From: a virus
Length of the DNA: 40,932 nucleotides
Reading direction: 5' to 3' (one strand)
Virus genome (UHGV): UHGV-1367653
Part shown: piece after piece, positions 8,652-34,083 of the stretch
How the letters are laid out: the number at the start of each line of letters is the position of its first letter
How positions within the stretch are numbered: the first letter of the stretch is position 1
The notes under the pieces: model-generated
Databases searched by the model: none
Told to the model about the DNA's origin: nothing
What the model saw: the letters and a program-made list of their open reading frames with translations, nothing else
Translations under genes and position numbers: made by a program

Positions 8652-9046
8652 GCAAGTTCACGCTGGACATTCAGGCTTTCGTCGCTAAGGCTAAGAAAAA
8701 TCCTGAAACAGTGATGCGTTCTGTATCACTGAAGCTGTTCAGCGCCATTATTAAGGCAAGCCCCGTTGACACCGGGCGGTTCCGCGGTAACTGGCAGACA
8801 ACCGGCGTTACTCCGGCCACAGGACTGATTGCAGGCGTCGACCCTACCGGGAATAAAGCCGTGAATAGCGCCGCAACGTTTATTACCAATGCGCCAGGCT
8901 GGGGCACATTCACCCTAACCAATAACCTGCCGTATGCCGAACGACTCGAATATGGCTGGTCGAAACAAGCGCCCGTCGGTATGGTTCGTGTTAATATAGC
9001 CAGGTTCCAGCAGTTAATTAATGAAGAGGCCGCGAAGGTACGATAA
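8648..9046 (+). CDS. HK97 gp10-like tail completion / neck protein
   Basis: N-terminal motif SPVDTGRFRGNW resembles the HK97 gp10 family. Confidence 0.45.
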   Translation: MSKFTLDIQAFVAKAKKNPETVMRSVSLKLFSAIIKASPVDTGRFRGNWQTTGVTPATGLIAGVDPTGNKAVNSAATFITNAPGWGTFTLTNNLPYAERLEYGWSKQAPVGMVRVNIARFQQLINEEAAKVR

Positions 9047-9462
9047 TGGCAAGTTACTTTGAAGACCTCACCAAAGCGTTCGACATCGCGCTGGTTAACT
9101 TCGGCAGCACGAATAGTATTGCCGTTGCACTGGAGAATATCGATGCGCCGACAAGCACCGCAACGCCGTATCTTGCGAGTTACATGCTTCTGGCCGACAC
9201 GGAACAGGCGGACCTGTTCTGGACGGAACAGCGCGCCGGAATTTACCAGATTGATATCAACGTTGCCTCCGCCAAAGGTAGCGCGCCAATCAATAAAATG
9301 GCAGACTTATTAAATACGGCGTTCAAGGCCGGAAACACGTTCCAGCGTAACGCTATCTGTGCCGAAGTGCAGTCGGTTAGCCTGGGGCCGCTGATTGTGG
9401 AAAACGGATGGGCGAAGCGCCCACTAACCATTAATTTCATTGCCTTCACTGCGAGGATATAA
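9046..9462 (+). CDS. Tail terminator-like protein
   Basis: It sits immediately upstream of the major tail protein. Confidence 0.35.
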   Translation: MASYFEDLTKAFDIALVNFGSTNSIAVALENIDAPTSTATPYLASYMLLADTEQADLFWTEQRAGIYQIDINVASAKGSAPINKMADLLNTAFKAGNTFQRNAICAEVQSVSLGPLIVENGWAKRPLTINFIAFTARI

Positions 9463-9464
9463 CG

Positions 9465-10637
9465 ATGGCACTGCAACCATACAAGGGCGCGAATACCGCA
9501 CAGTTCTACGTGCTTGAAACAACGCCTGGCGTTACCCCTACTTCTCCGAGCTGGTCACCGCTGCGTAATACTGGCGGTATTCCTGCCGTTACACGCGATG
9601 CGCTGGTTTCTAATGAGCTGGACGGCAGCCGCGAAACTTCCTCCATCCGTACCGGTAACAAACAGGTCACCGGTGAATACGCGATTGAACTGAGCGCGCA
9701 GAGCCAGGACGAACTGCTGGCTGGTGCGATGACAAGTTCCTGGGTTACAGGTGTTACCGGCTCCGGCGTATCTGTTGCCGTTGATGCTACCACCAAAACC
9801 TTCACCCGTTCCGCAGGTAACTATCTGACTGATGGTGTTGAAGTGGGCGACCTGATTCGCTTCTCAGACCTGCCAGGCGGAAACGGTAAACCGTTCATCG
9901 TAACCAGTGTTAACGACACCGTTGTCGCCGGGGCGGCGATTCCCGACGGCACCCTGACCACTGCGGCAGCCGCCACTACCGATTACCTTACCGGCGACAA
10001 GCTGGAAACTGGTAACCTATGTAAGACCTATTCTATCCTGACTTGGTTCAAAGGGCGCTGTGGCAGTGCGGACAGCTACGTCATTACCCGCGGTGTTGAG
10101 TTCTCCGGCTTCAGTATCGAGCAGGCTGTCAATGCAATGGTGACTGGTTCGTTCCCGTTCATTGGTCTGTCTCAAGAAATTCTGAGCGCGCCGCCTGCCG
10201 GGTCGACCTTCACGGTTAACTTCGACGCTGAGCCCTTCGCAAGCGTTGACGTGTCTGCGTTTAACGGCACAGCGCCGCTTAAGTTGATTGACACATTTAC
10301 CATTACCAACGATAACAGCGCGTCGGCGCAGTTCGAACTCGGCAATGATAGCGTGGCGTTTGTTGAGCGCGGCCGCGCCGCGAATACTTTCTCACTGGCG
10401 GGTAAGCTGTACGACATGACTCTGCTGAATCTGTTCCTGAACGAAACGCAGATTGAATTGACGTCTATTCTGGCAGGTCCGGACGGCGCGATGTCATTCA
10501 CGCTGAAACGAGCTGAACTTACGGCAGCCACTCCTGAAATTGGCGGGCCTGAATCGGTAACTTTATCTCTTGAAGGACAGGCTACTGGTAACGCGGTTCA
10601 GTCGTCCATTGTGATTCAGCGTATCGCCTATGCCTAA
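9465..10637 (+). CDS. Major tail (tube) protein
   Basis: 390 aa, followed by a terminator, upstream of the chaperones and tape measure. Confidence 0.6.
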   Translation: MALQPYKGANTAQFYVLETTPGVTPTSPSWSPLRNTGGIPAVTRDALVSNELDGSRETSSIRTGNKQVTGEYAIELSAQSQDELLAGAMTSSWVTGVTGSGVSVAVDATTKTFTRSAGNYLTDGVEVGDLIRFSDLPGGNGKPFIVTSVNDTVVAGAAIPDGTLTTAAAATTDYLTGDKLETGNLCKTYSILTWFKGRCGSADSYVITRGVEFSGFSIEQAVNAMVTGSFPFIGLSQEILSAPPAGSTFTVNFDAEPFASVDVSAFNGTAPLKLIDTFTITNDNSASAQFELGNDSVAFVERGRAANTFSLAGKLYDMTLLNLFLNETQIELTSILAGPDGAMSFTLKRAELTAATPEIGGPESVTLSLEGQATGNAVQSSIVIQRIAYA

Positions 10638-10641
10638 AATT

Positions 10642-10661
10642 AAGGCCCCTTTCGGGGCCTT
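10642..10661. terminator. Bidirectional terminator hairpin aggcccc-tttc-ggggcct
   Basis: It lies between the major tail stop (10637) and the convergent minus gene stop (10660). Confidence 0.6.
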
Positions 10662-10992
10662 ACTCTTGTTTGCCAATATCCCACCCACCTATTGCCATAA
10701 AGGCCATACTCAGACGCCCAGCATCCGGCAGGCCTCGCGAGCTTCTGTTAACCATAGAAAGCACGTATTCAATAGAAACGCCGTGGCGCGCAGCTTTTGC
10801 GGATGATTCGCATAAATTTATAGATTCTTCTTTAACCTGATTTGTTACATCAGGGCGTATTTCGCTCATGCGAATAAAACTTTCTGATTTGGCTTGTGGG
10901 TTAGAGGCCCATAAATCCTCACAAGGCGTAGCACCCGCCGCGAAGCTCAAAGCCATTGACGAACCAATCAGCACAGCAATTAACGTTTTCAT
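10660..10992 (-). CDS. Secreted periplasmic protein of unknown function, a moron inside the tail module (110 aa). It has a Sec signal peptide and no lipobox.
   Basis: Starts MKTLIAVLIGSSMALSFAAGA, then TPCED. It has 2 Cys, lies on the opposite strand to the flanking tail genes, and has its own promoter and an AGGAGA SD. Confidence 0.6.
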   Translation of the reverse strand: MKTLIAVLIGSSMALSFAAGATPCEDLWASNPQAKSESFIRMSEIRPDVTNQVKEESINLCESSAKAARHGVSIEYVLSMVNRSSRGLPDAGRLSMAFMAIGGWDIGKQE

Positions 10993-11019
10993 AATCTTTC
11001 TCCTGTAAGTGTTTAAACA

Positions 11020-11048
11020 ATACTATGCTATTGTTTTGAGCAATGCAA
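11020..11048 (-). promoter_or_regulatory. Sigma70-type promoter TTGCAT-N17-TAGTAT driving the moron, overlapped by the 8-bp inverted repeat AAACAATA-N6-TATTGTTT
   Basis: On the plus strand the hexamers read as atgcaa (11043-48) and atacta (11020-25). The inverted repeat spans 11015-11036. Confidence 0.55.
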
Positions 11049-11153
11049 GTGTTCTGGTAGAATAAATCTGCGCCTACTGTCGCCCAGGAAAAGCGGTTGG
11101 TTACCGCCTGGCGCTTTAGACAACCAATACCCTCTTAACCAAAGGATATATCG

Positions 11154-11570
11154 ATGGAACTGAAAGATTTCTTCTTCGCTGACAAACACGCTGCCGGAAC
11201 TGTTATGCCTATCCCGCTGCCGAACGGTGAAGATTCCGGCGAATGGCTGCGTGTTATTGGCCCCGCGTGCGATGACGGAGTTAAAGCCGGTCGCGATTAT
11301 TCTCGCGCCTACACGGCAATCCGCGAGGAACTTGCGCCACTGGATGCCGAGTGTAAAGCGAAAAATGATTGGTCCAGTTATAATGCAGAAATGAACTGGA
11401 AAGCTGATGAGCTTAACGACGCTCTGGCGGTTGCTACGGTTATCGGGTGGTCATTCGATGAACCATTTAGTAAAGATGCATTGAAAAAGCTACTTAACGA
11501 GTATAAGGGGCTTGGCACTATCGTAGCCAAGCACTTCCACGATAGCAGAAAATCTTTAGCGGAAAAGTAG
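11154..11570 (+). CDS. Tail assembly chaperone (lambda gpG-like)
   Basis: 138 aa and acidic, directly upstream of the tape measure. A -1 frame ORF continues from it. Confidence 0.6.
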   Translation: MELKDFFFADKHAAGTVMPIPLPNGEDSGEWLRVIGPACDDGVKAGRDYSRAYTAIREELAPLDAECKAKNDWSSYNAEMNWKADELNDALAVATVIGWSFDEPFSKDALKKLLNEYKGLGTIVAKHFHDSRKSLAEK

Positions 11571-11935
11571 ACGCGCTGTATGAGTATGCCCGCTGGAACT
11601 ATGTAGACCGTCAGAAGAAACAGAAGTTTGACGACATTTCGGCCGGGCATAAAGCTTTTATGGAAGCCATCGGGCAATTACCCACGGCAACCGTAAAAGA
11701 TGAGGCAGTACCAACCCTACCATGTATTTTTGTTGGTGTTTGGGATAAGTACCGTAACCTCAAATTCATACAGCGCAACACAGCAGACTCGCTGGTATTA
11801 TGCCCGCGTGATATGCTTAACTGGCAGGACCTGGTCGCGTATAAATCCATGACCGGGGAAACGATAAGCCTCCTCGAAACGGAGCTTATCATGGGTATAG
11901 ACGCTATATTCGAAGGGCGAGAAGATGGCTGATAC
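11154..11935 (+). CDS. Tail assembly chaperone G-T-like fusion, produced by a programmed -1 frameshift near GGAAAAG (11561-11567)
   Basis: The -1 frame is open from 11546 to ~11932 and overlaps the tape measure start. The G stop codon sits immediately after the candidate slippery site. Predicted fusion is ~258 aa. Confidence 0.5.
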
Positions 11936-14159
11936 AGCTTCGCTAATTGCGAGAGTAAAAACAGAAGGCGCGGAGCAGTCGGCCAAACAGCTCGACGATT
12001 TCGCCGCGTCCGCCGGAAAGGCGGACACATCGGCAACAAAGATGGCGTCTTCCGTCGATAAAGCCACTCCTAAATTAAAAGGCTTCGGCACCGGGGCGCA
12101 ACAAATCGGTTACCAGGTTCAGGACATGATTGTCCAGATTCAGGGTGGTACATCGGCTTTTGTAGCTATTGGCCAGCAGGGTTCTCAACTAGCGGGCGCG
12201 TTCGGCCCCGGCGGTGCAGTAATCGGCGCAATCATCGCCCTGTCTGCTGCCGTTGGCGGAACTCTGGTTAAATCCCTCGGTGGCGCTAAAGTAAGTTCTG
12301 AAGAGCTACAGGCGTCAACAAAAACGCTGGACGATGTTCTTCAGAAGAATAAAGACGGAGCTTATGAACTATCGGACAGCTTTGTTGAACTCGCCAATAA
12401 CATCGATACTGCGTCCCAAGCCCAGGCCAAATTCTACGAAGCGCAGTCGGCAGCCGTTACGCAGACTGAAGGCGCTAAAGAGGCTATATCTGATTTAGTA
12501 GACAGTCTTGATACCTGGTCCAATGGTTCCGCTATCGGCGCGCAACGTTCCCTCGAACTAGGCCAGCAGACGTCTTCGCTATCCGGCTATCTGCAAGACC
12601 TGTCCGATAAGTTTGGCATCACTAATGAAGAGGCTACAACTCTCGTTCCTTTGCTTGCTGCCGTGCAGAAGAATGCCTCCCCGGAAAATATCAAAGCGCT
12701 GTCTGATGAAACAGCCCGTCTTAACGATAAATATCAGGGAACCAATGACGAGCTCGTCAAGTTCAACGGCGAATTGTTCAAGAACATCGGCCGTATGCAG
12801 GACGCCGCTTCTAAATCTGATACCTTATCCGGTTCTCAGGACAAATTAGGCAGGGCCATTAACTCTACGACTCAGCGCCTGAAAGAGCAGAATGACCAGA
12901 TTATCAAGAATATTCAGATAGGTAATCTGGCTGACAAAGAGCGTTACGCGGCCCAAGCTAAAGCCGACAAAGAGGCTTTTGCTAAACGCGAAGGTGTGAC
13001 TAAAGAGCAGATAGACGCGTACAACGCGGCCCGCGACGAAGAAGCCCGGCAGGATATCCAACGAGTTACCGATACAGAGGCTAAAAAACTAAAAACAGAG
13101 CAAGAGTCCTCTGCGAAGCGTGCCGCCGCCGAAGCGCAGCGCGCGGATAACCAACGGCAGCAACGTGAGAAGCAGGCTCAGAACTTCCTCGATACGCTGG
13201 CCCGGCAGAACTCCGATGAACTTAAAGCTATAGACGCGCAGGAACAGCAGAAATTAGCCAAGCTTCAGGAGTTCCAGCAGACCGGCGCAATTAATGCGCA
13301 GCAGTTCGAAGAAGCTAAAACTAAAATTATGCTGGAGGCGGATACCGCCCGCCAGGAAGAGCTTGCCAAACGACAAGAAGAACAGCGCAAGAAAGACCAG
13401 AAAGGCGATGATTTCATGGCTCAGATTATGGGCCAGAACGCAACTGAGCTTGAACTATTCGACATTCAACAAAAACAGAAAGAAGAAATAGCCAAGCAAT
13501 ACCGTGACCAGGGAATTATCGACGAGGATGAATATCAGAAAGCGCTACTGGCTATCGCTGGTAACTACAACAAAAAGCGCCGCGACGAATACGCCAGCAT
13601 TCTTGGACAGACTACCGATGACCTGAAAACCGCGCTCGGCGAAGGTAACAAGGCCTACAAAGCTTTCGCCATTGCTAACGCTATCATGAACACATATCAA
13701 TCCGCCGTGGCCGCCTATCAATCTGCTGCGGCAATCCCGGTTATTGGTTGGGTGGCCGGTCCTGTAGCGGCCGCTGCTGCCGTTGCTGCGGGTCTTGCTA
13801 ACGTGGCCAAGATTCGTTCCGCGCGTGAACAGGGTGGCGCCTTATCCGCCGGGCAGATTTCAACTATCGCCGAACGTGGGCAGCCTGAAGTTATTATGCC
13901 CGCTGGCGCGTCGCGTGTGCGGACGGCACAACAGATGCGTCAAATTATGGGTGAAAACTCAGGTGGTAAATCCAGTGGCAACGACAGCGTAGTTATTGTC
14001 AACCAGACTACTGGCCGCATTGACTCCGCGCAGACAGAGCGCGATGATGAAGGGCGCTTACGCATTCTTATTCGCGAACTGGTATCCAGTGATTTGCAGG
14101 ACAGTAACTCCGATATTTCTAAATCCCGCCGCAGCACCCGCGGCCAGCCAGGACATTAA
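11925..14159 (+). CDS. Tail tape measure protein
   Basis: 744 aa, coiled-coil and Ala/Gln/Lys-rich, with a Gly/Ala-rich hydrophobic segment. Confidence 0.85.
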   Translation: MADTASLIARVKTEGAEQSAKQLDDFAASAGKADTSATKMASSVDKATPKLKGFGTGAQQIGYQVQDMIVQIQGGTSAFVAIGQQGSQLAGAFGPGGAVIGAIIALSAAVGGTLVKSLGGAKVSSEELQASTKTLDDVLQKNKDGAYELSDSFVELANNIDTASQAQAKFYEAQSAAVTQTEGAKEAISDLVDSLDTWSNGSAIGAQRSLELGQQTSSLSGYLQDLSDKFGITNEEATTLVPLLAAVQKNASPENIKALSDETARLNDKYQGTNDELVKFNGELFKNIGRMQDAASKSDTLSGSQDKLGRAINSTTQRLKEQNDQIIKNIQIGNLADKERYAAQAKADKEAFAKREGVTKEQIDAYNAARDEEARQDIQRVTDTEAKKLKTEQESSAKRAAAEAQRADNQRQQREKQAQNFLDTLARQNSDELKAIDAQEQQKLAKLQEFQQTGAINAQQFEEAKTKIMLEADTARQEELAKRQEEQRKKDQKGDDFMAQIMGQNATELELFDIQQKQKEEIAKQYRDQGIIDEDEYQKALLAIAGNYNKKRRDEYASILGQTTDDLKTALGEGNKAYKAFAIANAIMNTYQSAVAAYQSAAAIPVIGWVAGPVAAAAAVAAGLANVAKIRSAREQGGALSAGQISTIAERGQPEVIMPAGASRVRTAQQMRQIMGENSGGKSSGNDSVVIVNQTTGRIDSAQTERDDEGRLRILIRELVSSDLQDSNSDISKSRRSTRGQPGH

Positions 14160-27183: not shown

Positions 27184-27441
27184 GTGTCAGTTTCCAGTGT
27201 CATTGTATCCGGGAATCTGCCCGGCCAGTGCTGCTAAAGATAATAGTTTAATATTGTGTTGTCAACAATTATCCAAACTTTTTATTTCGCCACTCCATAA
27301 AACGTAACCGCCACTTAGCGTCGTACATTTTATCCGCCCCAGTATCGGCCAATTCACCGAGGAAATATAAACCGCGAAGAAGGCAATACAAAACTGCAAG
27401 AGGTATCAACGGTACGGCGAGAAGCCACCAGATTAATTTCT

Positions 27442-30713: not shown

Positions 30714-33017
30714 ATGGAAAATATCATCTTCTCCATCGGCCACGATGCTAAGAAACGTCGCGCCAAAAACTACGATATCACCTGGTCAGAGTTCGTTACC
30801 GAGATGGTGGACTATATCGAAGAGCCGAGCCTTGGGATTGAGTTCACCGGCAGCGAAACGCAGGAACAATACGACCGCAAGAAGAAGCAGCAGAACTACA
30901 TCGCGGCTGCCGTTGATAAGGTGCGCAGCAACGATACTATCATTGGGCGCTCGCTCATCTATATCGACCTTGACGGCGTGACGTCGCGCGACGTGCGCAA
31001 GGTTACCCGGGCGCTTAATAATAAAGGCCTGGCCTACTTCGCTCATGGCACCAGCTCCGACAAGCACGAACTGAAAGGCGGCGAAGACCATCGCGCAGTC
31101 CGCTTCCTCATCCCGACTAACGTTCCGATGGCGGCGGATGAAATATGGCACTGTCAGCACAGCTTCCTGTGGTGGCTTGGTCTGGACAACATGCCTGGCG
31201 TCGATATGACGGCTAACCAGCGCGCCCGTATCATGTTCGTGCCTCCGTACGGCGCTGAACACTGGGAAAGCGATGGCAAGCCCGTGCGCGTCACGAAGCT
31301 GCTGAACAACGGCTGTGAGCCGCCGTCAGAGCTTGGCGCGACTAACTGGTCTGAAGATGCCCTGGCCAACGCTGACGAGAACTCACAGGCCATCGCTGGC
31401 TGGGCGTTCGAGATGGGCCTGGAGATGATGTCGTCCGGGCGCGGCTGGGCTATCCAGTGCCCTAATCACATGGCGCACACAGATGGTCGCGACGGCACCG
31501 ATGGCGACACGGCAATCCTGCTACCGGACAGCCTGCATCCGGAAGTACGCTTCCAGTGCCAGCACTCACACTGTAAAGGCCTGAACAGTCACCAGCACAT
31601 GATGCTGCAACTCGCAGGCGTGCCGAACGCGTACCTGCCCGAAGCGCACAACATCAGCAAGAAGCAGATTGAGGAGCTTCTTCCATTCTTCGACGCTGAA
31701 GAGATTGAGCACATCCATCATAACCAGGTGTCGGCCGCTGCCGAGGGTGCCGACGCGCACCAGTGCCAGGACGAAGACCTGATGGACGAGCCGTGTGCGC
31801 TGTTCACCAAGCGCGACCCGATTATCGACGGCCTGTATAACTTCAAATCAACGTTCGAGCTAGTGGGCGAGTCCAACATCGGTAAATCTTTCTTCTTGCT
31901 GGGCCAGATGGCATGCGCCGCCGCGGGCATTCCGTTTGCCGGTGCAAAAGTCATCAAGTCGCACAACTTCTATTTCGACGCCGAGGGCGGCAGCACGACC
32001 GAAGACCGCAAACAGGCGCTACAGATTACCTACGATGACCCGCTGGACTGGCTGCACATTATCGACCTGCAACATGAGGGCTGGGACATCACGTCAACCG
32101 CCGGGCGTAAGGCCATCATCCGCCATATCCGCACGGTGGCCGGTAACGACCCGGTCGGCCTGGTGGCGTTCGACTCCCTTAACCAGTCTGTCTCCCTGTC
32201 AGCTACGCCGTTCGACGAGAACTCATCCGCCGATATGGGCGTGGTTGCGTCGGCGCTTAAAGCGATTGCCGATGAAACCGGTGCGTGTGCCGGCGTCGTT
32301 CACCACCCGGCCAAATCAGAGAAGGGCACCCGCCGCGTCGGTCGTGGTTCCGGCGCGCTGCACGGCGCTGTAGATTTCGTTTACTTCATAGAGCAGCCTG
32401 ACGAGACCAAGCCGCTTCAGCTCAATATGTACATGGAGAAGGCGCGCGCCGGGGTTAAACAGTTGCCGCGCGGCTTTGTGCTGGCGAAGTGCCACATCAC
32501 CGTCGAGAAGTCGCACGACGACGCTATCGTGGCGATGCAATCTACTCGTGACGCGCCGGACTTCGGAGAATTCTTAACAGGGCACACCGTTAAACCGTTC
32601 GACTCATCGCCGCGTGACGAAACCTTAGTCCTTATCCCTGTGGCCCTGGCCGCGTTCACTACGGCAGCGGCTGATGTTGCACGCAAAGCAACAAAAGAGG
32701 CCAACGATAAGCCGGGCCTGACGAAAGAAGAGGCCGCTATCGTTGCCGCGCTGGAGGAACTGCAAGCATCCGACGACCGACCACAGGGTTATCCTGTAGG
32801 TGAGATTGTCAGGCTCATGCCCGGCGGCGGCAACTCCCGGCGGCGCTCCCTCGTTAAGGAGATGGCAGAGCGCGGATTAATCTGTTTTGGCAAAGACCAC
32901 AAGGGTAGATTGCTGAACGGAGAGGACGACCGCCACCTGCAATTCCGTATCACAGGACAGCCAACAGACCACATCGACGCGCAGCCAACAGCGGAAGATG
33001 ATGACCTGGCGGACTAA
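30714..33017 (+). CDS. DNA primase-helicase: an AEP-type primase-polymerase N-domain, a Zn-binding region, and a RepA/DnaB-like AAA_25 P-loop NTPase
   Basis: AEP motifs IYIDLD, AHGTS and VDMT. Cys/His cluster CPNHMAH...CQHSHC. Walker A GESNIGKS. Confidence 0.7.
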   Translation: MENIIFSIGHDAKKRRAKNYDITWSEFVTEMVDYIEEPSLGIEFTGSETQEQYDRKKKQQNYIAAAVDKVRSNDTIIGRSLIYIDLDGVTSRDVRKVTRALNNKGLAYFAHGTSSDKHELKGGEDHRAVRFLIPTNVPMAADEIWHCQHSFLWWLGLDNMPGVDMTANQRARIMFVPPYGAEHWESDGKPVRVTKLLNNGCEPPSELGATNWSEDALANADENSQAIAGWAFEMGLEMMSSGRGWAIQCPNHMAHTDGRDGTDGDTAILLPDSLHPEVRFQCQHSHCKGLNSHQHMMLQLAGVPNAYLPEAHNISKKQIEELLPFFDAEEIEHIHHNQVSAAAEGADAHQCQDEDLMDEPCALFTKRDPIIDGLYNFKSTFELVGESNIGKSFFLLGQMACAAAGIPFAGAKVIKSHNFYFDAEGGSTTEDRKQALQITYDDPLDWLHIIDLQHEGWDITSTAGRKAIIRHIRTVAGNDPVGLVAFDSLNQSVSLSATPFDENSSADMGVVASALKAIADETGACAGVVHHPAKSEKGTRRVGRGSGALHGAVDFVYFIEQPDETKPLQLNMYMEKARAGVKQLPRGFVLAKCHITVEKSHDDAIVAMQSTRDAPDFGEFLTGHTVKPFDSSPRDETLVLIPVALAAFTTAAADVARKATKEANDKPGLTKEEAAIVAALEELQASDDRPQGYPVGEIVRLMPGGGNSRRRSLVKEMAERGLICFGKDHKGRLLNGEDDRHLQFRITGQPTDHIDAQPTAEDDDLAD

Positions 33018-33031
33018 ATATCAAGGTCGGC

Positions 33032-33190
33032 GGACAATGTTGGCTGTGAATAGTTATTCAGAAAAAGTGAATAAATAAGCGTTGGCTGCGGCGGACAAAT
33101 TGCCGGACAATTTTCTGACGGACAAAACGGACGGACAACGTTGTCCGCCTACTGCCGCAATGGTTTGCTGCCGAACGGACAACGGACACG
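33032..33190. repeat. Iteron-like repeats CGGACAA (6 direct copies, 1 inverted, 1 degenerate), including the 16-bp palindrome CGGACAACGTTGTCCG. Candidate replication origin.
   Basis: Copies at 33032, 33093, 33105, 33120, 33133 and 33177, with an inverted copy at 33141. They are spaced 12-15 bp apart. Confidence 0.5.
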
Positions 33191-33302
33191 GACTAGTCTT
33201 AGCAGACTGAATGGGGGTGGTCTGTCCGACCCACCCTCCAGTCCTCTAAGACTGCATAAGCGCTTATTCAATTAGTCCAGCATCTACGGCAACAAAATAC
33301 AT

Positions 33303-33331
33303 TTGCACAATCGGGAATATTATTGTATTGT
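33303..33331 (+). promoter_or_regulatory. Candidate promoter TTGCAC-N17-TATTGT
   Basis: It shares the -10 region TATTGTtagt with the 34-kb promoter. Confidence 0.4.
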
Positions 33332-34029: not shown

Positions 34030-34083
34030 CAGATAAGAAATAGCATAGTATTGTTAGTATCAAATTAATGAGGAGAAGCAAAT

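Follow-up and report, generated by a model that had tools for sequence, protein, structure and literature searches.

An antiparallel gene between the tail genes of a Guernseyvirinae phage encodes a predicted periplasmic protein and is a candidate alternate of the Imm superinfection immunity gene

Why would a lytic phage carry, in the middle of its tail genes and on the opposite strand, a small gene for an exported protein? The question is raised by the UHGV virus genome UHGV-1367653 (40,932 nucleotides [nt]; this whole stretch is called the window below), which is the essentially complete ~41 kb (40.9 kb) genome of a lytic Enterobacter/Klebsiella phage, a siphovirus (subfamily Guernseyvirinae). 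Here, the tail tube gene (9465-10637) and the tail assembly chaperone (TAC) gene (11154-11570) flank an open reading frame (ORF) of 110 amino acids (aa) that runs antiparallel to both. An earlier reading made from the letters alone (the original prediction) had proposed an opposite-strand moron for a secreted protein between the major tail protein and the chaperones, and the ORF list indeed places it there, at 10660-10992 on the minus strand. As we argue below, this ORF is very probably a real, autonomous moron for an exported protein; to the complete model, in which a self-contained leftward moron supplies an early periplasmic accessory protein for superinfection exclusion, we assign a probability of roughly 0.45. 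The features that carry the argument are the following:

10660-10992, minus strand: coding sequence for the 110-aa precursor of a small secreted helical protein, with an ATG start (phrog_14165, ORF list)
10930-10992, minus strand: signal peptide, residues 1-21 (MKTLIAVLIGSSMALSFAAGA), with predicted signal peptidase I cleavage after A-G-A
10663-10929, minus strand: mature domain (89 aa, 9.8 kDa, pI 5.4), with C24, C61 and a C-terminal F-M-A-x-G-G-W-x-I-G motif
10999-11004, minus strand: Shine-Dalgarno (SD) sequence AGGAGA, 6 nt before the ATG, with an AGGAG-like element at the equivalent place in relatives
11020-11048, minus strand: sigma-70-type moron promoter TTGCAT-N17-TAGTAT (-35 at 11048-11043, -10 at 11025-11020)
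10641-10662: terminator hairpin TAAGGCCCC-TTTC-GGGGCCTTA, between the convergent stop codons and overlapping the stop codon of the moron

The ORF matched phrog_14165 (E 2.4e-41), a family whose function is unassigned in PHROGs, and matched no Pfam family even at E<=0.1. Compared to Enterobacter (Klebsiella) aerogenes phage phiEap-2, which is 95.7% identical to the window over 901 nt around the moron, the ORF carries seven synonymous changes and one non-synonymous change (ratio of non-synonymous to synonymous substitution rates, dN/dS: 0.04); compared to more distant relatives, dN is 0.18-0.47 and dS is saturated. A search of 5.8 billion proteins returned 22 homologues (mostly 57-96% identity, from ~40 kb phage contigs) with a codon-like conservation pattern, and in the alignment of 23 sequences the start codon, the signal peptide, C24, C61 and the C-terminal F-M-A-x-G-G-W-x-I-G motif are invariant or nearly so. 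The moron gene is therefore under purifying selection. Relatives that lack the ORF and keep just an intergenic terminator had been named as the outcome that would undo the original prediction; what we found instead was the set of 22 homologues, and synteny is conserved in the family.

A moron in the sense of Juhala/Hendrix has its own promoter directly upstream and its own factor-independent terminator directly downstream, lies between functional neighbor genes at a place where the content varies among relatives, and differs in base composition from the genes that flank it. At this locus, a promoter is recognizable by sequence directly upstream of the ORF and is positionally conserved in five sub-groups, the hairpin at 10641-10662 lies directly downstream, and the place is the tube/TAC junction. 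The guanine-cytosine (GC) content is 46.5% in the moron ORF, 55.0% in the tube gene and 52.3% in the genome, and this drop is a classical moron signature. On every point that sequence can show, the unit agrees with the definition. The promoter fits the consensus at 7 of 12 positions and escaped our consensus scan; for these two reasons the sequence does not justify calling it strong, as had been claimed, although the TTGCAT-N17-TAGTAT element itself is present. The form TTGCAy-N16/17-TAnTAT is nevertheless kept in register in ~15 related phages (phiEap-2-like, Cornellvirus, Serratia, Kagunavirus and Jerseyvirus phages) though the surrounding sequence has diverged, a positional conservation that seems more than chance would produce, and the records of phages SETP3 and Eta annotate a promoter at this very position. 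The AGGAGA SD sequence was found where it had been described (11004-10999, 6 nt from the ATG). The terminator has a 9-bp GC-rich stem (free energy -16.9 kcal/mol on the plus and -18.8 kcal/mol on the minus strand; z -3.1 and -4.7, respectively), its U-tract is better on the minus strand with AUUUUA after the hairpin, and the Eta record annotates the equivalent hairpin as rho-independent terminators on both strands. Thus a hairpin does separate the convergent genes, but the moron is not bracketed by a terminator as had been proposed: there is a single hairpin, at the 3' end. Promoter, SD sequence and convergent terminator hairpin are conserved across the subfamily, so that the moron reading stands as that of a selected gene with conserved signals of its own. 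The architecture as such is not new, because gene 60 of Serratia phage Eta, the positional homologue, was already named a 'potential moron' in 2014, and a promoter and a terminator of its own were ascribed to it (Denyes et al., 2014; PMC3918226).

What kind of protein would this gene supply? The signal peptide reads MK-TLIAVLIGSSMALSF-AAGA, followed after the predicted cut by TP, with a basic n-region and a 15-residue hydrophobic core (Kyte-Doolittle maximum 2.2). The n/h/c regions and the A-x-A at -3/-1 (A-G-A in the window protein, A-E-A in most relatives) are conserved in the 23 sequences, and AlphaFold2 (AF2) confidence is low for residues 1-18; cleavage probably occurs after AGA. The window protein has no lipobox (A-T-P-C stands in its place). 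C24 and C61 are invariant in the 23 sequences (C-X36-C); of the 20 family members listed, 16 have a spacing of 37, among them every distant and lipoprotein form, the exceptions being 34 in Bas75, Jersey and T102 and 39 in SP-031. Such a pair would fit a structural disulfide formed in the periplasm. The Sec signal peptide, the A-x-A of the predicted cleavage site and the two cysteines of the original prediction are therefore present and conserved, and the features of the product support a Sec-exported, non-lipoprotein periplasmic protein.

The prediction had also called for a structure prediction and a fold search. With the family alignment, AF2 returned a confident, all-helical model with five helices (residues 23-29, 37-45, 47-69, 74-84 and 90-109; mean predicted local distance difference test [pLDDT] 84, and >89 from residue 21 on); the fold search yielded no relative of this model among solved structures. 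Foldseek against the predicted viral structures of BFVD gave significant matches to the protein's own orthologue and to a protein of Serratia phage Tsm2, and weaker ones to proteins of K1H and SE1Kor; Tsm2, K1H and SE1Kor are all Guernseyvirinae. A weak likeness to DUF732 (probability 0.84-0.93; template modeling score 0.45-0.48), a secreted/lipoprotein helical domain of mycobacteria and phages that is likewise small and exported, came with Foldseek E-values of 0.3-0.5, whereas the window ORF has no Pfam match at E 0.1, and we consider it a resemblance only. Pfam, PADLOC and PDB sequence searches with the ORF and its family gave chance-level matches (PtuA, E 0.014; PsaF, E 1.7).

Across Guernseyvirinae, the same antiparallel slot holds a helical protein of ~94-120 aa with a signal peptide and a C...C pair. 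It is carried by phiEap-2, Cornellvirus SP-031, St161, Serratia phages Otaku and Eta, Kagunavirus Bas75, Jerseyvirus Jersey and T102, and several metagenomic phage contigs, and the phiEap-2-type alignment matched the Jersey/Bas75/Eta types in hhalign with a probability of 97.9% (E 6e-13). By tblastn, three types of the secreted family were found in 34, 99 and 7 of the 493 phage records with the neighboring chaperone. The window ORF shows the marks of this family: the profile match, the export signal, the Cys pair, the C-terminal G-W-x-x-G helix and the position upstream of TAC. A profile search of 1.84 billion representative proteins gave 13 hits, every one of them a phage protein from this slot or a low-complexity match; as none of them is annotated, there is no distant relative from which a function could be transferred, and we found no paper that deals with what any of the members does. 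In 185,579 bacterial genomes, a pattern-based scan, a method of limited sensitivity, detected no member, and the family appears to be confined to phages.

Five distant homologues (P0023, P0025, P0026, P0028 and P0029), encoded in the same tube/TAC slot, carry a canonical lipobox (xxGC followed by SY; V-L-G-C, F-I-G-C etc.) and a short tether before the domain. Since members bear either a signal peptide or a lipobox, the domain would always lie outside the cytoplasm, free or lipid-anchored. The original prediction had likened the locus to cor-type genes and set its protein apart by the missing lipobox; the lipobox is indeed missing from the window protein, but the contrast is less sharp than it seemed, in view of these distant members. 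The mature domain is 16-69% identical to that of relatives whose tube proteins are 77-97% identical. It diverges while the upstream region and the codons of the signal peptide are kept, a pattern that resembles repeated exchange of cassettes. The content of the slot varies with the phage and can be the secreted family alone, the secreted family with a PF26207 gene, the secreted family with an exonuclease operon, or Imm with the exonuclease operon, and the region has been reported to differ between very close K1 phages (PMC5582158). As a separate observation, some relatives have a second, non-secreted gene on the same strand, 3' of the secreted-protein gene and before the terminator (251 aa in L007, 3335-4090; 94 aa in L014, 4541-4825). 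Both match Pfam PF26207 Phage_phiTE_015, faintly in L007, and so the slot can hold a two-gene cassette.

The alternation with Imm is what connects the slot to superinfection. In Jersey and T102, the leftward unit consists of the secreted protein, an exonuclease, a 76-aa gene and an Ant-like protein; in SETP3 and K1ind1 the unit is the same, but its first gene encodes a ~60-aa PF14373 Imm_superinfect protein (E 2e-15 and 2e-13, respectively). The intergenic region upstream of the slot is conserved whichever gene occupies it: when Bas75 (secreted protein) is compared to K1ind1 (Imm), the promoter is nearly identical and divergence begins at the gene. Whole-genome tblastn found Imm without the secreted family in SETP3 and K1ind1, and the secreted family without Imm in Jersey and the window, so that the two were mutually exclusive in 4/4 complete genomes checked. 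Queries with the SETP3 and K1ind1 Imm proteins found no Imm elsewhere in the window (tblastn, E>=0.32). The window ORF does not belong to PF14373, and what the two have in common is the genomic slot alone: Imm (SETP3 gp23, K1ind1 ORF20) occupies the identical promoter-proximal place behind the same conserved promoter and leader region, but is unrelated in sequence and is a ~60-aa hydrophobic membrane protein, in contrast to an 89-aa soluble exported helical domain. The carriers of Imm are strictly lytic phages (PMC8425127), and imm is a core gene of lytic Jerseyviruses whose mechanism is not known (PMC8425127). By gene order, then, the secreted gene is the positional alternate of a T4-Imm-type superinfection immunity gene, and the four genomes suggest that it is plausibly a functional alternate as well; in our view no other clue to its function is as good as this alternation.

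The model that we favor would work as follows. Host RNA polymerase would transcribe the moron from its own promoter, probably early; the timing is suggested by the Jersey-type promoter, which heads the exonuclease/Ant operon, and by a 17-mer that the -10 region shares with a small-gene promoter at 34 kb. The precursor would be exported by Sec, cleaved after AGA and oxidized by DsbA to yield a ~9.8 kDa soluble periplasmic protein, which, in the periplasm of an infected cell, would prevent a second infection or lysis from without. Its target could be a penetration or DNA-delivery component of the incoming phage, or a host envelope component needed by that apparatus. We assign the protein to superinfection exclusion because its gene is Imm's positional alternate, with the same slot and promoter and without co-occurrence in the four genomes. 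For the role itself, superinfection exclusion or protection from lysis from without, we stay somewhat short of even odds. The exclusion role that had been listed among the possibilities has gained circumstantial ground, in that slot and promoter carry Imm in SETP3 and K1ind1 with 4/4 exclusivity; the function is read from this context.

Several points weigh against this reading. The family is known from sequence and prediction alone, and it is just the type of promoter and the homology of the operon that suggest the early timing. The slot in common with Imm speaks for interchangeable genome architecture and not for identical function; hypervariable slots can hold unrelated cargo, and the exclusivity was seen in a comparison of just four genomes. 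In addition, the receptors of Guernseyvirinae are surface glycans (PMC11990801), and so there is no obvious periplasmic target.

Known systems bear on the model to different degrees. Gene 60 of phage Eta is among the closest: it has the same antiparallel tube/TAC position and belongs to the same family (signal peptide, C-X36-C, helical; hhalign 97.9% for its sub-group), and the Eta record shows divergent promoters and terminators on both strands, as at the window locus. It differs in being 27-29% identical to the window protein and in that Eta forms unstable lysogens (PMC3918226).

The window protein also resembles T4 Spackle (Sp, gp61.3) in general design, a likeness by analogy: Spackle has a 97-aa precursor (110 aa here) with a cleavable signal peptide and two cysteines in the mature form, and is a periplasmic protein of a virulent phage. 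Spackle is helical, disulfide-bonded and made early, and inhibits the gp5 tail lysozyme. Homology to Spackle was rejected, as there is no sequence or fold similarity, and a Pfam scan of the tape measure protein, the one tail protein scanned, found no lysozyme domain. The lysozyme inhibitors Ivy, PliC/MliC, PliG and PliI were likewise rejected, and with them the inhibitor role that had been offered as an option, since the model has no fold match to any solved inhibitor.

Cor (phi80/N15/T1), Llp (T5) and Ltp (Streptococcus phage TP-J34) are envelope proteins with which phages prevent a second infection. Cor, whose gene sits among tail genes, and Llp both mask FhuA; Ltp is helical, and a soluble secreted derivative of it is still active. 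Through its lipoprotein relatives, the secreted family may be said to resemble these three by analogy. The window protein differs from them in having no lipobox and no homology or fold match to any of the three, and its subfamily uses glycan receptors (PMC11990801). Ltp is described as the prototype of a family of cell-surface lipoproteins in superinfection exclusion (PMC3952083).

Of the alternatives, the one that survives best is a periplasmic accessory protein with a role other than excluding incoming phage. It could act by inhibition or sequestration on an enzyme of the host periplasm or on a defence located in the envelope, adjust the timing of lysis or the integrity of the envelope, or change how O-antigen/capsule is assembled, which would spare progeny from loss on infected cells or debris. 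The export signals and the disulfide pair would suit any periplasmic role, the fast-evolving mature domain fits an arms-race interface, and the glycan dependence of the subfamily (PMC11990801) and the lack of similarity to known exclusion proteins point the same way. We regard such a role as possible but on the whole unlikely.

The next alternative concerns the control of the locus. The original prediction had called the inverted repeat over the -10 an operator, and the remaining features of the junction are needed here:

11015-11036: perfect inverted repeat AAACAATA-N6-TATTGTTT, 8/8 complementary, overlapping the -10; the best copy of an AATA-N6-TATTGT motif
11036-11063, plus strand: rightward promoter of the TAC/tape-measure operon, TTGAGC-16-TAGAAT, with a TGn extended -10 (TGG-TAGAAT), from the consensus scan
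11070-11114, plus strand: conserved three-way-junction element in the TAC-operon leader, resembling the Rfam int-alpA RNA (RF02996), from the covariance model
9465-10637: tail tube gene (PF18906, E 7e-37)
11154-11570, plus strand: TAC gene (PF08748; phrog_15027), with the tape measure gene then downstream

The rightward promoter is the sole promoter called by the scan in 9000-12500, and its TAGAAT and upstream TG are conserved in relatives. The leftward (11020-11048) and rightward (11036-11063) promoters stand back to back, both conserved across Guernseyvirinae, with -35 regions that nearly abut and -10 hexamers 32 bp apart on opposite strands. At this distance, occupancy of the two promoters by RNA polymerase is probably mutually exclusive. 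The rightward promoter would restart transcription of TAC and the tape measure gene past the terminator.

Could the palindrome be a putative operator, at which a dimeric regulator of phage or host represses the moron promoter and, through similar sites, three further promoters, and so helps to switch the back-to-back pair? The AATA-N6-TATTGT motif occurs at four sites in the genome, all intergenic and promoter-like: at the moron promoter (11017-11034), upstream of a gene for a Gp2.5-like single-stranded DNA-binding protein (SSB), and upstream of two clusters of small genes (27242-27257, 33316-33331 and 34039-34054 for these three). The full 22-mer is found at three sites with <=3 mismatches, against 0.10 expected, and the 17-mer AATAGCATAGTATTGTT is identical at 11016-11032 (minus) and 34039-34055 (plus). 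Because the register of the motif relative to the -35 varies (offsets 4, 7, 7 and 10), it is not simply the -10 hexamer. These results, together with the perfect dyad and the overlapping promoters, speak for an operator. Against it, the outer arms of the palindrome are not conserved in the promoter-keeping relatives L007, L008, L017, Bas75, Jersey and SETP3, close or distant (the equivalents of the arm are TATTCC in L007, TATTCT in L008 and L017, TATTCA in Bas75, and TATCC/TATCT in Jersey and SETP3), and the dyad upstream of the SSB gene is not kept in relatives either. No helix-turn-helix or repressor-like gene was found among 20 further ORFs (replication genes and small ORFs outside the tail block) scanned against PHROGs, the hairpin that the palindrome could form as RNA or DNA is weak (-5.6 kcal/mol, z -0.8), and a common AT-rich promoter spacer could stem from common descent or duplication. 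Since the palindrome is lineage-specific, it argues weakly for an operator: the 8/8 repeat over the -10 exists as described, and the regulatory role ascribed to it is rather improbable. In phage Eta, a 19-bp motif was reported to recur four times, once at the equivalent promoter (PMC3918226), but its sequence differs from that of the window motif.

It is very unlikely that the gene is a moron for host fitness or lysogenic conversion, as lambda Bor/Lom are, which a carried phage genome would express to the benefit of the bacterium. The layout, with an autonomous promoter and terminator among late genes, is classical for a moron, and the relative Eta forms unstable lysogens (PMC3918226); however, phiEap-2 is reported to be lytic (PMC4913238; the paper is silent on the moron gene), no integrase or repressor was found among the ORFs scanned, and the family was not found in the 185,579 bacterial genomes of the pattern scan and is confined to ~40 kb phage contigs. 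Finally, that the ORF is non-functional and the region merely an intergenic terminator with a promoter spacer would suit an annotation as no more than 'hypothetical protein' and the missing Pfam domain, but is effectively refuted by the conservation pattern as we read it, with a dN/dS of 0.04 against phiEap-2, the phrog_14165 match (E 2.4e-41), the confident AF2 fold, and a start codon, SD sequence, signal peptide, Cys pair and C-terminal motif kept over 20+ sequences.

The leader of the TAC operon deserves its own description. The element at 11070-11114, between the rightward promoter and the TAC start codon, scored 25.7 bits with RF02996 in the window, 27.3 in L007, 30.9 in K1ind1 and 35.8 in Bas75, the gathering score being 35.8. 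Six base pairs show compensatory changes across 9 phages, and the element was also found in L012 (2112-2176) and L011 (2111-2175). Its placement just past the promoter that would restart the long tail operon suggests a cis-acting leader. Two short ORFs on the minus strand here, one of 53 aa (11028-11189) and the 30-aa Bas75_0025 (L012 2076-2168), overlap the conserved promoter and RNA region and were rejected as genes; as the 56% 'protein' identity of the two is most simply nucleotide conservation of the regulatory region, the annotation of Bas75_0025 is probably spurious.

Further observations concern other parts of the genome. The TAC ORF (11154-11570, plus) and a 90-aa ORF at 11660-11932 (plus) both match phrog_15027, and their equivalents in K1ind1 are annotated as a joined product; the two are predicted to form the programmed frameshift pair that is usual for tail assembly chaperones. 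The leader of the SSB gene contains, past a conserved TTGACA-N17-TATCTT promoter, a GC-rich hairpin (CACTGGCCGGGCAGATTCCCGGA; 27190-27225, minus), which is retained in 11 related phage contigs (L022-L032, ~440-470) although both arms have changed in sequence. An iteron-like cluster (33031-33230) follows closely on the primase-helicase gene (30714-33017); here, 7 of the 19 forward CGGACA copies in the genome, and two inverted copies, fall within ~200 nt; a replication origin or a regulator-binding array is possible.

What does the gene mean for these phages? What is new here is the swap of Imm and the secreted protein in one slot, which, going by the genomes compared, makes the exclusion hypothesis directly testable. 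A bolder proposal is that the protein is the founding member of a new fold family of periplasmic superinfection-exclusion proteins of lytic siphoviruses, with soluble and lipoprotein forms and interchangeable with Imm, downstream of a single conserved promoter, as a tube/TAC 'exclusion cassette', for which the dyad and the int-alpA-like leader could form an early/late switch; we consider it speculative and, taken as a whole, doubtful. If the protein is not an exclusion factor, it is an ordinary hypothetical moron. If it is indeed a functional alternate of Imm, ~140 of the ~490 sequenced members would carry a second, unrecognized periplasmic exclusion mechanism, and the identical promoter upstream of either gene would make their swap a clean natural experiment, open to isogenic cassette exchange. 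With no solved structural relative, the target of the protein would newly inform how siphovirus DNA passes across the Gram-negative envelope. Therapy and biocontrol are uses for which Guernseyvirinae (Jersey-, K1-, SETP3- and phiEap-2-like phages) have been widely put forward, and mutual exclusion affects the design of cocktails.

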